Part shown: one piece after another, positions 1-59,994 of the stretch
Numbering within the stretch: position 1 is the stretch's first letter
Layout: the number at the start of each line of letters is the position of its first letter
IMG/VR virus record: IMGVR_UViG_2634166419_000001
Coordinates: 1-64,000 of that record
Source: a virus
Taxonomy: Duplodnaviria; Caudoviricetes
Length of the DNA: 64,000 bases
Direction: 5' to 3' (one strand)
Made by a program: the position numbers and the translations under genes
The notes under the pieces: generated by a model
Database searches by the model: none
The model's input: only the letters and a program-made list of their open reading frames with translations
What the model was told of the DNA's origin: nothing

Positions 1-525
1 TTAATCTAAAGGTATAATGTCTTTTGTTTTCGTCGAATAAGCTACAACTCTATATTGATCAGCGGCAATTTGATATTTCAATTCAATTCCAGTTGTATCG
101 TTAGGTAGATTCTTGGCTATTTCAGATACTTTCTGTTTAAATGCTGATATAACTAATTTTTGAGTATCGTCAGCAGTGTTTGAATCAATTGCATCTACGA
201 TTTCTTTTGTTCCTTTGGCGGTTTCACCGCTCAATAATACATTAATAACATCGTGGCCATCAGGAAAATCGCTATCTTGAACATCGTTTTCAATTTCGAT
301 TGTAAAGTCACTATCGTTTTCTGGATTTAATTCAGATTGTAGTGATTTAACTACGCTATCGTATTGACTATTATCGACTTCTTTCTTTGCTTCTTTTTCC
401 ACAACGTTTGATGATGTAGTTGTGCTACTTTTAGCAGTCGTTTCTTTTTTGTCGCTACTTCCACAAGCTGCTAACGATAAAGTAAGTGCACACAACAATC
501 CTAATTTTATAATTTTCTTCTTCAT
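1..525 (-). CDS. Prophage lipoprotein, candidate superinfection exclusion protein
   Basis: MKKK signal peptide, lipobox LAAC, Ser/Thr linker; directly downstream of cI; ATG at 525 follows SD GGGAG. Confidence 0.75.
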   Translation of the reverse strand: MKKKIIKLGLLCALTLSLAACGSSDKKETTAKSSTTTSSNVVEKEAKKEVDNSQYDSVVKSLQSELNPENDSDFTIEIENDVQDSDFPDGHDVINVLLSGETAKGTKEIVDAIDSNTADDTQKLVISAFKQKVSEIAKNLPNDTTGIELKYQIAADQYRVVAYSTKTKDIIPLD

Positions 526-554
526 AAAACTCACTCCCTATGATATAATAAAAT

Positions 555-610
555 CGCATATGAATATATCGGCTAGGGAGTGGACAGAAACATTCCCTAG
601 CCATTTTTTT
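555..610 (+). ncRNA. Candidate ~55-nt antisense RNA opposite the lipoprotein leader
   Basis: TG-A-TATAAT 541-549, TTCATA 17 bp upstream, hairpin GGCTAGGGAGTG/CATTCCCTAGCC plus T-run; near-identical copy in prophage 2. Confidence 0.5.
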
Positions 611-1289
611 ATAAAACTACTACACCGACAACTTTAAAATCATCATATTCATTAATTAAAATATCTTTATATTTTTTATTTAACGACACCAGGCGATTCC
701 CCATTATCTTTTTAACGTACGTTTCATTATTTAGCGTACAGACAATTATTTGACCGTCGCGTACTTCGTGGGTTTTTCTGATAAATAATATTTGGTTATC
801 TTCAAATAATGGCAACATTGAATCACCGTTTACACGAACGACATAATCATGATTAGGTATTTGGCCGTTATATTCAATTTCTTCCTTTAAGCTGCCATCT
901 TGCCATTCTCCGGTACCGGCGGATACAACTGCATCAAGATTAAGTGTGGTAGGAAACGGAACGACATTATCGGAAATAGTGTTTTGTTCGTCAAGTTTAG
1001 ATTTGGCGAAATCGATAACCTTTAACTTACTATCTTTAGTGAGTTTTTCAAAATAAAAATATAAATCCTTATTAAGATTTTCTTTTTCAGATAGTAGTAG
1101 CATATCTTCGGCTCTCATGTTTAATTCATCCGCTATTCTTATTACATTTTCTACTTTGGCATTTAATAAGCCTCTTTCTAAAATCGACCTTATCGTTGTG
1201 TAAGGTATATTTATTTTTTCAGAAAATGCTTTAACGTTTTGATATTTTTCTTCTATTATTCTCTTTAGAACTTCTTCATTCGTCATCAT
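609..1289 (-). CDS. CI-like repressor (HTH + S24 peptidase)
   Basis: N-terminal HTH, SAGTG cleavage motif, VNGDSM and YVKK catalytic motifs; divergent from cro. Confidence 0.92.
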   Translation of the reverse strand: MMTNEEVLKRIIEEKYQNVKAFSEKINIPYTTIRSILERGLLNAKVENVIRIADELNMRAEDMLLLSEKENLNKDLYFYFEKLTKDSKLKVIDFAKSKLDEQNTISDNVVPFPTTLNLDAVVSAGTGEWQDGSLKEEIEYNGQIPNHDYVVRVNGDSMLPLFEDNQILFIRKTHEVRDGQIIVCTLNNETYVKKIMGNRLVSLNKKYKDILINEYDDFKVVGVVVL

Positions 1290-1317
1290 TAACACCTCCT
1301 TATACCGTTATTATACC

Positions 1318-36827: not shown

Positions 36828-37997
36828 TCATTGACTGCCATTTTGAATGCCATTGACAAAATCGACGAACTTATCCAAAGTGCCGACTTCGTATTCTTTA
36901 GATAAGTGACCATACGTGTCCATAGTCACGGTAATGGATCCGTGGCGCAGACGAGTTTGCACCTCCTTAAGGTTAGCACCTGCCTCGATTAAAAAACTCG
37001 CGTGCGTGTGCCTGGTTGCGTGGTTGCCATAAAAAGGCACGCCCGCGTTTTTGGTTGCTCTTCTGAGTTGATAATAAACATCAGAGGAAAATACCCAGTC
37101 GCCCTCAAGTTTGCTAAAAATAGGCGGCTCGCCTGTTAAGCCAATTGCTAAACGGGCCTTTTTCTTATACGCTCGCCACGTTTTTAAAATCCTTAATGTT
37201 TGCTCATCAACGGGTAACACTGCAACACTAGCCTTTGTTTTAGGTTTGCCAACAGTCAGCTTACTATCAACAAGCTTGAGCGTTTTGTCAATGTTTAAGG
37301 TTTTAGCCTTAAAATCTATATCGGACCATTCGAGCGCGAGAGCCTCATTGATGCGCAAGCCAGTGAAGAAAAGTAAACGAAACAGCGCGTACATGAAATA
37401 ACCATCATAATCAGATTGGTTATCTTTTAGATACGCCATAAGTGTATTAAAATCTTGTTTAGCGTACACTTTAACGCGTTTGTGAGCATCTCCTTTAGGC
37501 TTAATAACAGACTCCATTGGGTTAATACTTATCAAGTCCATGGTAATGGCGTATTTAAAGATACGACTAGCCTTGCATGTCAGTGCTCCGAGTGCTGAGT
37601 ATTGTAAATACCAATCATTCACCGCCTGTTGGCATTCCACCCTTGTGATGTCCTTAATAGGTCGGTCACCAAATTTAGGGTATAGATAGTTTTTTAAGAT
37701 GTTTTTGGTTCCTTGATACGTTACATCCTGCACGGTTAACTTGTAGCTGGTTAACCAAAGCTCGGCCACCTCTTTAAAAGTTAAGCTATCTATGCTATCA
37801 TTTTCTTGTGAGGCCCACGTATCTGCATCAAATTCAGCGAGTAACTGACTGCAGGCGCGTTGGGCTTGTTTTTTTGTCTCAAAGCCACGCCTTGTGGTCT
37901 TGATACGCTTTCCTGTTTTCGGGTCAGTACCAAGATAAGCGGAAAATTGCCACGCTTCTTGGCCGTTCTTTTTGGTGTATTTTTTAAAATTTGCCAT
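36828..37997 (-). CDS. int: Tyrosine integrase
   Basis: Arm-binding N-terminus, TGLRINE, HATRHTHAS, RLRH..TMDTYGH. Confidence 0.95.
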   Translation of the reverse strand: MANFKKYTKKNGQEAWQFSAYLGTDPKTGKRIKTTRRGFETKKQAQRACSQLLAEFDADTWASQENDSIDSLTFKEVAELWLTSYKLTVQDVTYQGTKNILKNYLYPKFGDRPIKDITRVECQQAVNDWYLQYSALGALTCKASRIFKYAITMDLISINPMESVIKPKGDAHKRVKVYAKQDFNTLMAYLKDNQSDYDGYFMYALFRLLFFTGLRINEALALEWSDIDFKAKTLNIDKTLKLVDSKLTVGKPKTKASVAVLPVDEQTLRILKTWRAYKKKARLAIGLTGEPPIFSKLEGDWVFSSDVYYQLRRATKNAGVPFYGNHATRHTHASFLIEAGANLKEVQTRLRHGSITVTMDTYGHLSKEYEVGTLDKFVDFVNGIQNGSQ

Positions 37998-38055
37998 TTT
38001 AATTCCTCCTAAAGTTTGTCCGGGCGGGGCTTATCTTTAGGGAATATTAGGCAAT

Positions 38056-38092
38056 AAAGGCCTGAGACGCATTTACTACACCCAGGCCTTTT
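38056..38092. terminator. Hairpin/terminator between ltp and int
   Basis: AAAGGCCTGAG/CCCAGGCCTTT. Confidence 0.6.
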
Positions 38093-38097
38093 GCTTA

Positions 38098-38562
38098 CTA
38101 CTTATTAAGATTATCTACCGCATATTGGGCTTCCTCTGGGGTAAATTTCTCAAACTCAGAGGTTAGTTGATCTTTGATTGCATCAGGCGACATAGCCATT
38201 TTATCCTGATATGATTTAGCTTTTTCTAAGGCGTTGGCATTATAGTCTGCTTTTAAATTATCTACCGCGTATTGAGCCGCTTCCGGAGAAAACTTCTCAA
38301 AATCAGAGGTCAGCTGGTCATAAATGCCTTGCTTAGACATGTGCATAGTTTTTGAATAAGTCTCAGCTTTCTTTAGTGCTGCAGTATATTCAGCAGGCAC
38401 CGCAGGTTTTTCCTCAGCTTTAGAGGATGAAACTGTTGTTTGTTCTGTTTTAACACTGCTTGCTGTTGCGTTATCACCTTTGGCAGATGTGTCTGAGCTG
38501 CCACACGCAGCCAATAGTAACGCAGTTGAGCAAACTAGCCCTAAACTTAAAATTTTCTTCAT
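38098..38562 (-). CDS. ltp: Ltp-family lipoprotein (superinfection exclusion)
   Basis: Lipobox LAAC; two repeats AL.KA..Y...M.MS...I.DQLTS.FEKF.PE.AQYAVDNL; between int and cI. Confidence 0.88.
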   Translation of the reverse strand: MKKILSLGLVCSTALLLAACGSSDTSAKGDNATASSVKTEQTTVSSSKAEEKPAVPAEYTAALKKAETYSKTMHMSKQGIYDQLTSDFEKFSPEAAQYAVDNLKADYNANALEKAKSYQDKMAMSPDAIKDQLTSEFEKFTPEEAQYAVDNLNK

Positions 38563-38591
38563 TTGTACCACTCCCTATGATATAATTTATT

Positions 38592-38646
38592 TGCATATGA
38601 ATATATCGGCTAGGGAGTGGACGGAAACATTCCCTAGCCATTTTTT
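38592..38646 (+). ncRNA. Candidate antisense RNA opposite the ltp leader
   Basis: TG-A-TATAAT 38578-38586, same hairpin and T-run as 555..610. Confidence 0.5.
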
Positions 38647-39328
38647 ATAAAGCTACCACACCGACAACTTTAAAATCATCATATTCATTAATTAAAATAT
38701 CTTTATATTTTTTATTTAACGATACTAAACGATTCCCCATTATCTTCTTGACGTACGTTTCATTATTAAGCGTACAGACGATTATTTGTCCGTCGCGTAC
38801 TTCGTGGGTTTTTCTGATGAATATTATTTGGTTATCTTCAAATAATGGTTGCATCGAGTCGCCGTTTACTCTTACCACATAATCGTGATTAGGAATCTGA
38901 CCGTCATATTCAATTTCTTCTTTAAAATTATCATCTTGCCATTCGCCAGTACCGGCCGATACGACTGCATCTAAATTTAAGGTAGTTGGGAATGGAACGA
39001 CGTTGTCAGAAATGGTATTTTGTTCATCTAATTTGGATTTGGCGAAATCGTAGACGATGGCTTGGTTATCAGAATTTAGCAAGTTATACACTTCGTTGAT
39101 ATCTTTAGTTTCAACACGTGGAAAAAACGTATTAATAGAAATTCCGAAAATATCTGCCAATTCAAAAAGTATATCTTGATTTGCTTTTCTATCGCCATTT
39201 TCGTATCTGCTGATTGATTGTCTTGTTGTTCTCAACTTCTTAGCTAGATCTTCTTGCGTCATTCCCATTTGTTCGCGGTAGTATTTAATTTTGCTACCAA
39301 TATACACTGATAATTCCATGATTTTCAC
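38645..39328 (-). CDS. CI-like repressor (XRE HTH + S24 peptidase)
   Basis: MTQEDLA..SISRYENG; C-terminal domain nearly identical to prophage 1 CI. Confidence 0.92.
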   Translation of the reverse strand: MKIMELSVYIGSKIKYYREQMGMTQEDLAKKLRTTRQSISRYENGDRKANQDILFELADIFGISINTFFPRVETKDINEVYNLLNSDNQAIVYDFAKSKLDEQNTISDNVVPFPTTLNLDAVVSAGTGEWQDDNFKEEIEYDGQIPNHDYVVRVNGDSMQPLFEDNQIIFIRKTHEVRDGQIIVCTLNNETYVKKIMGNRLVSLNKKYKDILINEYDDFKVVGVVAL

Positions 39329-59454: not shown

Positions 59455-59919
59455 ATGGGATTTTTAAATGCTAATGATGTGATCAACGGTCGTGAGGGCA
59501 CTGCCTTTATTACGATTGACGGTAGAAACATTCCGATGTTTTTCCTCAAAAATATTGAGGCGACTGTTGAGTTAAATAAAGCTGAGGTACCTGTTTTAGG
59601 TACACGAATGGTCCAACAAAAAGTGACCAATGCCTCAGGTAGCGGCTCGATGACCATCCATAAAGTGACAAGTGAGTTTGCTAAAATCGGTGTTGATTAC
59701 TTAAAATCAGGTCGTATCCCAGACATCACGATTAAAGTCACTAATGATGACCCTCAATCGTCAGTCGGTCGTCAATCGACTTTATTAAAACACGTTATTT
59801 TAGATAGCGTGGTCATTGCTAAATTAGATGTTGAATCCGATACTTTGGACGAGGATTGTGACTTTACATTTAACGACGCAGATTTATTGGAAACATTTGT
59901 AGAGCCTACCTTGTTATAA
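59455..59919 (+). CDS. Tail tube protein (XkdM-like)
   Basis: D.INGREG, NDDP.S.VGRQ, FTF. Confidence 0.9.
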   Translation: MGFLNANDVINGREGTAFITIDGRNIPMFFLKNIEATVELNKAEVPVLGTRMVQQKVTNASGSGSMTIHKVTSEFAKIGVDYLKSGRIPDITIKVTNDDPQSSVGRQSTLLKHVILDSVVIAKLDVESDTLDEDCDFTFNDADLLETFVEPTLL

Positions 59920-59994
59920 TCGTATGGCTCTTTTTTGTGCAGCAGGAGTGCACTGCTGCTGCACACGTTTTTAATTTAAGGAGGACTAAAAACA

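Follow-up and report, generated by a model that had tools for sequence, protein, structure and literature searches.

A predicted convergent small-RNA unit between the repressor and lipoprotein genes of two tandem prophages

Phage P22 produces sar, a convergent RNA of ~69 nt made from the spacer between two cistrons of one operon. It is transcribed from a promoter where the downstream gene begins, terminates where the upstream gene ends and covers the ribosome binding site (RBS) of ant. In anti-antisense activation of the DsrA-rpoS type, a leader sequesters the Shine-Dalgarno (SD) sequence and a small RNA captures the sequestering segment. Here, we compare these and other systems with a locus that occurs twice in a 64-kb window of viral DNA (positions 1 to 64,000 of the IMG/VR record IMGVR_UViG_2634166419_000001, the whole stretch analysed). 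This window makes up the first 64 kb of a provirus record of 73.8 kb in total, and two tandem prophages lie in it. In both, the spacer between a cI-like repressor gene and a lipoprotein gene appears to carry a self-contained antisense small-RNA unit on the strand opposite the two genes. Taken as a whole, we consider this the best explanation of the spacer and put its probability at about 0.55.

P22 sas is listed as a 105-nt cis RNA that acts as a translational switch in sieB (table in PMC12197685). In the Staphylococcus aureus phage 80alpha, a constitutive antisense promoter lies in the cI operon and is silenced in lysogeny by read-through from the cI promoter (excerpt of PMC11087260). In the Streptococcus pyogenes prophage 370.3, an 89-nt small RNA (sRNA) with a predicted promoter and terminator lies between int3 and SPy_0938 and was confirmed by northern blot; two more S. 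pyogenes sRNAs are encoded on opposite strands between int4 and a repressor gene (excerpt of PMC4829319).

Like sar, the unit in the window would be a convergent small-RNA unit between two cistrons of what is presumably one operon. Unlike sar, its RNA has no complementarity to the RBS and is predicted to stay ~16-20 nt short of the SD, because the -10 element sits between the predicted start and the SD. With these predicted ends, the RNA cannot mask the SD directly in the way sar does. An earlier reading of the window, made from the letters alone (the sequence-only reading), had pointed to the antisense RNA by which P22 regulates its exclusion gene sieB. With sas and sieB, the unit would share a cis-antisense RNA at a prophage superinfection-exclusion gene; however, sas acts inside the sieB reading frame, shifting initiation, whereas the window RNA would lie in the 5' leader, and only one of the downstream genes codes for a known exclusion protein. 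The noncontiguous tha/ith operon of 80alpha also has an antisense promoter nested in a cI-driven lysogeny operon beside a prophage defence gene, but its antisense unit encodes a protein inhibitor, Ith, while the RNAs predicted here are 50-70 nt long and have no conserved reading frame. Countertranscripts of the pT181 type are likewise short convergent RNAs directed against a leader in a Gram-positive element; here, in contrast, the window has no ctRNA_pT181 match and the leader no conserved sense-strand attenuator terminator, a U-run following the SD helix in some leaders only. As in the DsrA-rpoS type, the leader hides the SD by a segment that the small RNA can capture, but DsrA-type regulators are trans-encoded and Hfq-dependent, whereas the window RNA is cis-encoded and its effect is predicted only.

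Spacers from nine loci were compared, comprising the two window copies (w1 in prophage 1, w2 in prophage 2), four IMG/VR contigs, one Bacillota metagenome-assembled genome (MAG) and two metagenome contigs. The L015 spacer is identical to that of L004, and counts are given per 8 distinct spacers or per 9 copies. Exact-pattern scans of the viral collection recovered the same four contigs plus one more, and searches with the cI C-terminal domain yielded one locus in genomes and two in metagenomes. A blastn search in distant mode with positions 480-760 found no match in the phage collection. The spacer measures 83 nt in prophage 1 and 82 nt in prophage 2, with 92 % identity between them, which bears out the near-identity noted in the sequence-only reading and corrects its size of 85 nt. 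That the two mature lipoproteins are unrelated also stood: the protein of prophage 2 has the lipoprotein signal and repeats of the Ltp superinfection-exclusion family, and that of prophage 1 has no Pfam match. Similarity between the two prophages covers the cI C-terminal domain and the spacer and ends a few bases past the SD.

The cI C-terminal domains of the relatives share 92-95 % protein identity with that of prophage 1. At fourfold-degenerate sites of the DNA encoding this domain, only 49-85 % of positions are identical across the 9 copies. Because this identity is so low, near saturation, the copies represent old lineages. Nevertheless, 45 of the 78 ungapped spacer columns (58 %) are invariant, compared with 7 of 39 fourfold sites (18 %; Fisher p = 6e-5). 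The columns that never change make up the A-run, both hairpin arms, GA..TATA, ATTATA.CA (the -10) and GGAGTG (the SD); the loop, 11 nt around the predicted start and the stretch between SD and ATG vary. At the level of sequence, these comparisons demonstrate that the spacer is under purifying selection beyond that on synonymous sites. A recent swap of the cI 3' end together with the spacer, without any function of the spacer itself, would account for the near-identity of the two window copies across the spacer and the ~130 nt of cI that precede it, and for mosaic boundaries at the cI domain junction and just past the SD. Such a recombination footprint, a concern already raised in the sequence-only reading, is contradicted by the fourfold-site divergence, by the excess of invariant columns among the 8 distinct copies and by the hairpin covariation described below. 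In addition, spacer variation follows the elements, and diverged units of other sequence retain the architecture. We therefore regard this explanation as highly improbable.

A scan of the + strand at 521-549 found TTCATA-17-TATAAT preceded by TG. The -35 hexamer, TTCATA at 521-526, is weak (4/6 matches) and lies over the lipoprotein start codon. With TGnTATAAT at 541-549 and a purine ~7 nt on, the site has the sequence of a sigma-A extended -10 promoter, for which a -35 is optional. The T(A/G)TG preceding the -10 matches the -16 motif of Gram-positive promoters. TG(A/G)TATAAT is kept in 8/8 distinct spacers. The motif TGNTATAAT occurs 9 times in the window against 4.55 expected; of these nine sites, one lies in each of the two spacers and one in each of the two cI promoters, which use the identical motif. 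In the wider family of units described below, TGnTATAAT is present in 21/21, varying only at n (partly an effect of ascertainment, since the search model includes the -10), and a purine lies 7 nt past the -10 in 21/21. Across this family, the -10 and the end of the T-run are 56-79 nt apart, giving predicted RNAs of ~50-73 nt.

The RNA predicted from 556-610 folds at -23.8 kcal/mol (z = -6.0), and 0/200 shuffles fold as well. A G+C-rich stem-loop followed by a U-tract, as in intrinsic terminators, is found on the + strand and kept in 21/21 units. The promoter, hairpin with T-run and ~55-nt RNA of the sequence-only reading were thus recovered, with the -10 in all copies and the hairpin fully paired on the + strand only. 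A coding role for the small RNA was rejected: an ATG is present in 6/8 copies, but with no SD and no stop ahead of the terminator, and no reading frame is conserved. A type I toxin-antitoxin system was also rejected, as the downstream products are lipoproteins, membrane or secreted proteins of 99-443 aa and of varied families, with no small hydrophobic toxin among them. Rfam scans gave 0 families at gathering score in the 64-kb window, nothing relevant at 450-700 up to E = 10 (RF02589 and ctRNA_pT181 both absent) and no match in a set of nine related loci. An RF02434 match at 450-700 was dismissed as chance level, with 21.5 bits (E = 1.6) where the gathering score is 60.

The pattern of substitutions in the hairpin identifies the strand that it serves. 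On the + strand, 12/12 positions pair in 9/9 copies, which comprise 5 distinct hairpins with loops of 4-8 nt and 1-3 G.U wobbles. Read as mRNA, each wobble becomes an A.C mismatch (1-3 in every copy), and the hairpin reaches only -7.9 to -10.5 kcal/mol in L004, L005, L006, L008 and L015 (4/8 distinct, 5/9 of all copies). Counted over aligned copies, 84.4 % of cells pair on the mRNA strand and, in a separate alignment, 107/107 on the + strand. After three distant units were added, 131/131 cells pair on the + strand, two-sided changes occur in 6/12 pairs and 0/500 shuffles match the score; both + strand alignments were fitted to the covariance model, which favours structure, although the arms align unambiguously. 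The outermost pair runs from G-C through G.U to A-U, and inner pairs change from G-C to A-U or C-G. This is the pattern made by selection for a + strand RNA helix, as far as sequence comparison can tell. Because the G.U wobbles of the + strand are the A.C mismatches of the mRNA strand, the hairpin would serve the ~55-nt antisense RNA and not the cI mRNA; because + strand pairing occurs together with the T-run, it would be an intrinsic terminator of + strand transcripts. In the wider family, the hairpin is stabler on the small-RNA strand than on the mRNA strand in 19/21 units.

On the mRNA strand, a different helix is conserved. The segment CACUCCCUA, the 3' arm of the weak mRNA hairpin, can pair either with upstream UAGGGAAUG or, assisted by GAUAUA/UAUAUC, with the SD region UAGGGAGUG, as the sequence-only reading had stated. 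Its further proposal, that the two mutually exclusive folds form a conserved switch, is not borne out, given a first fold that is mismatched and, in 4/8, too weak to compete; nor does the cI stop codon abut the first stem, as a 6-7-nt A/T-run lies between. The fold that sequesters the SD is the minimum-energy structure in 6/8 leaders, lies 1.7 kcal/mol above the minimum in w1 and is disfavoured by 12.5 kcal/mol in L007. It is also the RNAalifold consensus. In the SD helix, 95.3 % of cells pair, 4 pairs show two-sided changes and 0/500 shuffles match the score. The probability that the SD is unpaired is <=0.03 in 6/8 leaders (w1 0.40, L007 0.70), against shuffled means of 0.24-0.42. Over the wider family (21 leaders), this probability has a median of 0.17, compared with 0.36 in shuffles; L038, L039 and L042 are open. 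The sequestration claimed earlier thus stands for 6/8 copies of this clade and is weak in the wider family. In this clade, the conserved mRNA feature, as predicted from the leaders, is SD sequestration and not a balanced two-state switch. A sense-strand promoter inside the spacer was considered and rejected, since candidate -10 hexamers are not conserved among the copies.

Table 1. Positions of the predicted elements and neighbouring genes in the 64-kb window.
Feature	Position	Strand	Details
Extended -10 TGATATAAT, antisense unit copy 1	541..549	+	Promoter scan
Predicted antisense small RNA, ~55 nt	556..610	+	15-nt single-stranded 5' tail, terminator hairpin, U-tract; start placed at the purine 7 nt after the -10
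Terminator hairpin	571..602	+	12 pairs, 7 G-C; arms GGCUAGGGAGUG / CAUUCCCUAGCC; 8-nt loop
T-run (T7)	604-610	+	Overlaps cI stop codon
Anti-SD segment CACUCCCUAGCC	571..582	- (mRNA)	3' arm of weak mRNA hairpin; able to pair with lipoprotein SD
SD region UAGGGAGUG, lipoprotein gene	532..540	-	SD of prophage 1 leader
cI-like repressor gene, prophage 1	609..1295	-	Peptidase_S24 C-terminal domain, PF00717, 82 bits; stop codon 609-611
Lipoprotein gene, prophage 1	1..525	-	174 aa; ATG 523-525; lipobox LAAC; stop 1-3; no Pfam family
Antisense unit copy 2, prophage 2	38578..38647	+	TGATATAAT 38578-38586, hairpin 38608-38639, T-run 38641-38646; covariance model 89.8 bits
cI-like repressor gene, prophage 2	38645..39328	-	N-terminal domain unlike prophage 1, C-terminal domain shared
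Ltp-family lipoprotein gene, prophage 2	38098..38562	-	ATG 38560-38562; PF07553, two repeats, 157 bits
Integrase gene, prophage 2	36828..37997		After Ltp-family gene

The same spacer precedes five unrelated genes among the loci compared. An Ltp gene follows it in w2, L004, L006 and L015, the lipoprotein gene of prophage 1 in w1 and L014, two further lipoprotein genes in L005 and L007, and a gene for a membrane-anchored protein in L008. A first + strand covariance model, run on the bacterial family of the MAG, detected a diverged unit after a helix-turn-helix repressor and Peptidase_M78 (ImmA) gene pair and before an RNase_T/BRCT gene. Its stem has a G-C to C-G flip and one + strand wobble, and its arm is no longer SD-like. 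A rebuilt covariance model (R3; cut-off E up to 0.01) was then applied to samples of two bacterial families and matched 13/134 genomes of the MAG's family and 5/36 of the second. The 18 matches were inspected: 13 are in context, 2 combine a promoter with a terminator but lack a convergent gene end and 2 are ordinary terminators. The remaining one, G266, is probably in context too, its upstream gene being ambiguous. The in-context units (13 or 14 of 18) lie exactly between the stop of the upstream gene and the SD of a varied downstream gene.

Twelve upstream genes of in-context units were scanned (L042 left out) and fall into Peptidase_M78 (6), Peptidase_S24 (3), DUF4950 (1) and no family (2). 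Genes downstream of the wider units encode DUF4352, DUF5067, DUF3862 and SHOCT proteins, a secreted nuclease, a zinc-ribbon membrane protein and lipoproteins without family. The covariance search suggested in the sequence-only reading did find units in other genomes, where they follow S24 repressor or ImmA genes and precede genes for varied surface proteins. In most units the U-tract overlaps the upstream stop codon within ~2 nt; in distant units the promoter and terminator are retained and the anti-SD arm is missing. At L038 (651-729, +) and, at the corresponding place, L039 (reverse strand), a second unit stands in series between the lipoprotein stop and the integrase start. A model R2 search of a sample of the order (E up to 0.05) matched 8/151 genomes, with 3 matches in context and 5 ordinary terminators. 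We conclude that the unit is portable and most likely one of a family located at lysogeny-operon gene junctions of related prophages, as judged from these alignments. The earlier proposal of a portable exclusion-gene cassette is thereby upheld for portability, given five unrelated genes and different regulators, and not for exclusion, since Ltp is the only known exclusion family among them and units also precede int.

L025-L029, L040 and L045 were rejected as units, being ordinary terminators with no -10. Two of these, L028 and L029, carry hairpins near-identical to ImmA-type units (GCTAAGCAATG ... CATTGCTTAGC) that act as ordinary, partly bidirectional terminators in the same order, which suggests, on sequence grounds, that a common terminator stem is reused. 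Two chromosomal sites of other genomes (L035:1501-1578 and L037:1501-1577) have an extended -10 and a strong terminator ~50 nt on, with no convergent gene end; these could be unrelated small RNA genes or leaders.

Units of like layout are also found on the int side of streptococcal and lactococcal phages. In phiLC3 (L046:1216-1345) and Javan221 (L047:1130-1285), such a unit separates the stop of a sie or hypothetical gene from the int start. Its extended -10 (TGATAAAAT) lies beside the SD of int, its hairpin with T-run falls on the upstream stop, and it is unannotated in both records. A blastn search with the Javan221 unit matched 179 phage records, 178 of them from Streptococcus. In the pneumococcal phage phiARI0468-2, the depositors annotated the int-side unit (L049:1237-1343) as an ncRNA, 'ctRNA_pT181', and the current Rfam gives no ctRNA_pT181 match there but a weak one to RF02589. 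The repressor-side junction of this phage has a + strand hairpin with a T-run and no extended -10. At int-side units, the weak matches to RF02589 (Spy779816; gathering score 67) reach 31.9 and 32.4 bits (Javan290 and a pneumococcal phage). RF02589 bears the name of the 89-nt sRNA of S. pyogenes prophage 370.3 (Spy_sRNA779816).

Spy_sRNA779816 resembles the window unit in having its own predicted promoter and terminator and in belonging to the lysogeny module of a streptococcal prophage, where its neighbours are the integrase gene and the gene next to it. The RF02589-matched and like-layout phage units share the layout of the window unit, with an extended -10 by the SD and the terminator on the upstream stop. 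Unlike the window unit, Spy_sRNA779816 stands before int and not before a moron, its sequence is unrelated and no anti-SD arrangement has been described for it. A literature search found no paper on an antisense RNA at the repressor-moron junction of a Gram-positive phage, and a term search of the Ltp paper PMC3952083 returned no mention of one. The window unit is a new version of a known, functionally unexplained kind of prophage small RNA.

If the antisense reading is right, a sigma-A extended -10 promoter, with its -35 over the lipoprotein start codon, would drive a ~55-nt cis-antisense RNA, starting ~7 nt past the -10. In its U-tract, this RNA would be complementary to the stop codon of cI and the A-run, and the -10 touches the downstream SD. 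The RNA would be fully complementary to the intercistronic leader and end ~16-20 nt upstream of the lipoprotein SD. Co-transcription of cI and the lipoprotein gene is expected, because no sense-strand promoter is conserved and the mRNA-strand hairpin is weak and without a U-tract. The small RNA, which is quite probably made, would pair with the leader and set the output of the downstream cistron; we lean slightly towards such a regulatory role. Its single-stranded 5' tail could plausibly make the first contact, being complementary to the loop at the apex of the SD-sequestering fold. In this clade, the SD would be freed by pairing or by RNase III cleavage of the duplex, because the leader's SD partner, CACUCCCUA, is the segment that the RNA covers. 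By analogy with 80alpha, the convergent promoter should be weakened by transcription running through from the cI promoter, which would tie the unit to the lysogenic state. A more speculative and rather doubtful extension, for prophages related to these, is a plug-in junction, in which each cistron behind the repressor, moron or int, would bring an SD-hiding leader and a convergent, SD-mimicking RNA that captures the anti-SD. Such an RNA would be a cis-encoded translational activator, gated by cI-promoter traffic, and would make operon output graded and switchable.

Within this reading, the promoter, the terminator, the strand served by the hairpin, purifying selection and portability are established as sequence features, and several points weigh against the rest. 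Because the RNA does not reach the SD, regulation could run in either direction: net activation by freeing the SD is a tentative possibility, and net repression, by decay or polymerase collision, a slightly fainter one. SD sequestration cannot be the universal function, as it fails in w1 (a near tie) and L007 and is weak or absent in several distant units. The complement of the -10 is also part of the mRNA helix (GAUAUA/UAUAUC), which may explain part of the -10 conservation. In the window pair alone, local recombination contributes, since the two cI genes hardly differ in their final ~130 nt. The related units were found by a model containing the -10 and hairpin, so that the presence of these elements in them is partly circular. 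The unit was found behind 0/30 top-scoring Peptidase_M78 loci of the same bacterial family. Most of these loci encode fused proteins of ~390 aa rather than small prophage ImmA, so that this sample is no measure of frequency among prophage ImmA genes; the detector recovered 17/18 known loci. Finally, a search of public sequencing runs found 9 runs with related sequence, each with 5-11 % of words and all assembled contigs, and the four examined are contigs of 90-99 % similar relatives that show neither strand nor ends nor joints.

One of the sequencing runs (X1, a wastewater library) contains a 97-nt contig that spans 521-617, the borders of the conserved cassette, at ~2x the depth of its neighbours. 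It was rejected as an RNA and read instead as an assembly break at a block common to several phage variants.

Three alternatives to the antisense unit were weighed. In a purely cis-acting mRNA element, the leader would toggle between the hairpin by the cI stop and the SD-sequestering helix, and the + strand features would be by-products. The minimum-energy SD helix of 6/8 leaders, its compensatory changes and the part of the -10 complement that lies inside it are all consistent with this, but the competing hairpin is degraded on the mRNA strand, with its 1-3 A.C mismatches and its -7.9 to -10.5 kcal/mol in 4/8, and perfect on the + strand. Moreover, invariance extends to features that play no part in the mRNA folds, namely the T-run, the TG, the final two bases of TATAAT and the purine at +7, and the distant units dispense with the anti-SD arm while retaining promoter and terminator. 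We judge a pure cis element distinctly unlikely.

Lambda OOP is a 77-nt cis RNA at the 3' end of cII. A 77-nt lambda cis-RNA in the table of PMC12197685 is presumably the same RNA. An OOP-like action, in which a duplex at the cI stop and 3' region would lead to RNase III cleavage and altered cI mRNA stability, with the lipoprotein gene a bystander, would fit the U-tract lying within ~2 nt of the upstream stop in most units and the repressor or ImmA gene upstream of repressor-side units. However, the RNA overlaps no more than 2-3 nt of the cI reading frame, and equivalent units follow moron genes and precede int, where no repressor message ends, which makes control of the repressor unlikely. 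Nearly as unlikely is an insulator or roadblock without a functional RNA: the terminator would block stray antisense transcription from the integrase side before it reaches cI and the lytic genes, and the convergent promoter would cut cI read-through into downstream genes by polymerase collision. The constitutive antisense promoter of the 80alpha cI operon, suppressed by the cI promoter in lysogeny, offers a precedent (excerpt of PMC11087260), and tandem units at successive junctions would grade expression in the order cI > moron > int. The conserved hairpin with its wobble-mediated covariation, the RNA length fixed at ~50-73 nt and the northern-validated stable RNA at the int-side locus of S. 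pyogenes prophage 370.3 (excerpt of PMC4829319) argue instead for an RNA product, as the antisense reading proposes.

Elsewhere in the window, the large terminase is 75-78 % identical to terminases of Streptococcus and Lactococcus phages. The record starts at the stop codon of the prophage 1 lipoprotein gene, and the integrase and left end of prophage 1 are absent from it. In prophage 2, between the stop of the Ltp gene and the integrase start (38040-38100), a hairpin (AAAGGCCTG ... CAGGCCTTT) has an A-run on one side and a T-run on the other; by its sequence it looks like a two-way terminator closing the cI-Ltp transcript, without an extended -10. At 59912-59972 (+), TGTTATAAT lies over the stop of a tail gene (59455-59919) and is followed by a strong hairpin and T-run. 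This site was rejected as an antisense unit; it is an ordinary same-strand terminator of the late operon, where the detector was misled by a spurious reverse-strand open reading frame.

Prophage genes expressed in lysogens, such as those for exclusion lipoproteins and other surface proteins, shape phage resistance, and how their levels are set in Gram-positive hosts is little understood. Strand-specific covariation defines here a compact, recurrent promoter-terminator unit at repressor-operon junctions, for which the analysis provides a covariance model. On weak model matches and a common layout, the unit is set beside the streptococcal int-side sRNA that was seen on northern blots and is functionally unexplained. 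If the small RNA is regulatory, it would explain how morons are swapped behind the repressor gene while control of their expression is kept, and it would represent a small, portable control part for Gram-positive hosts.

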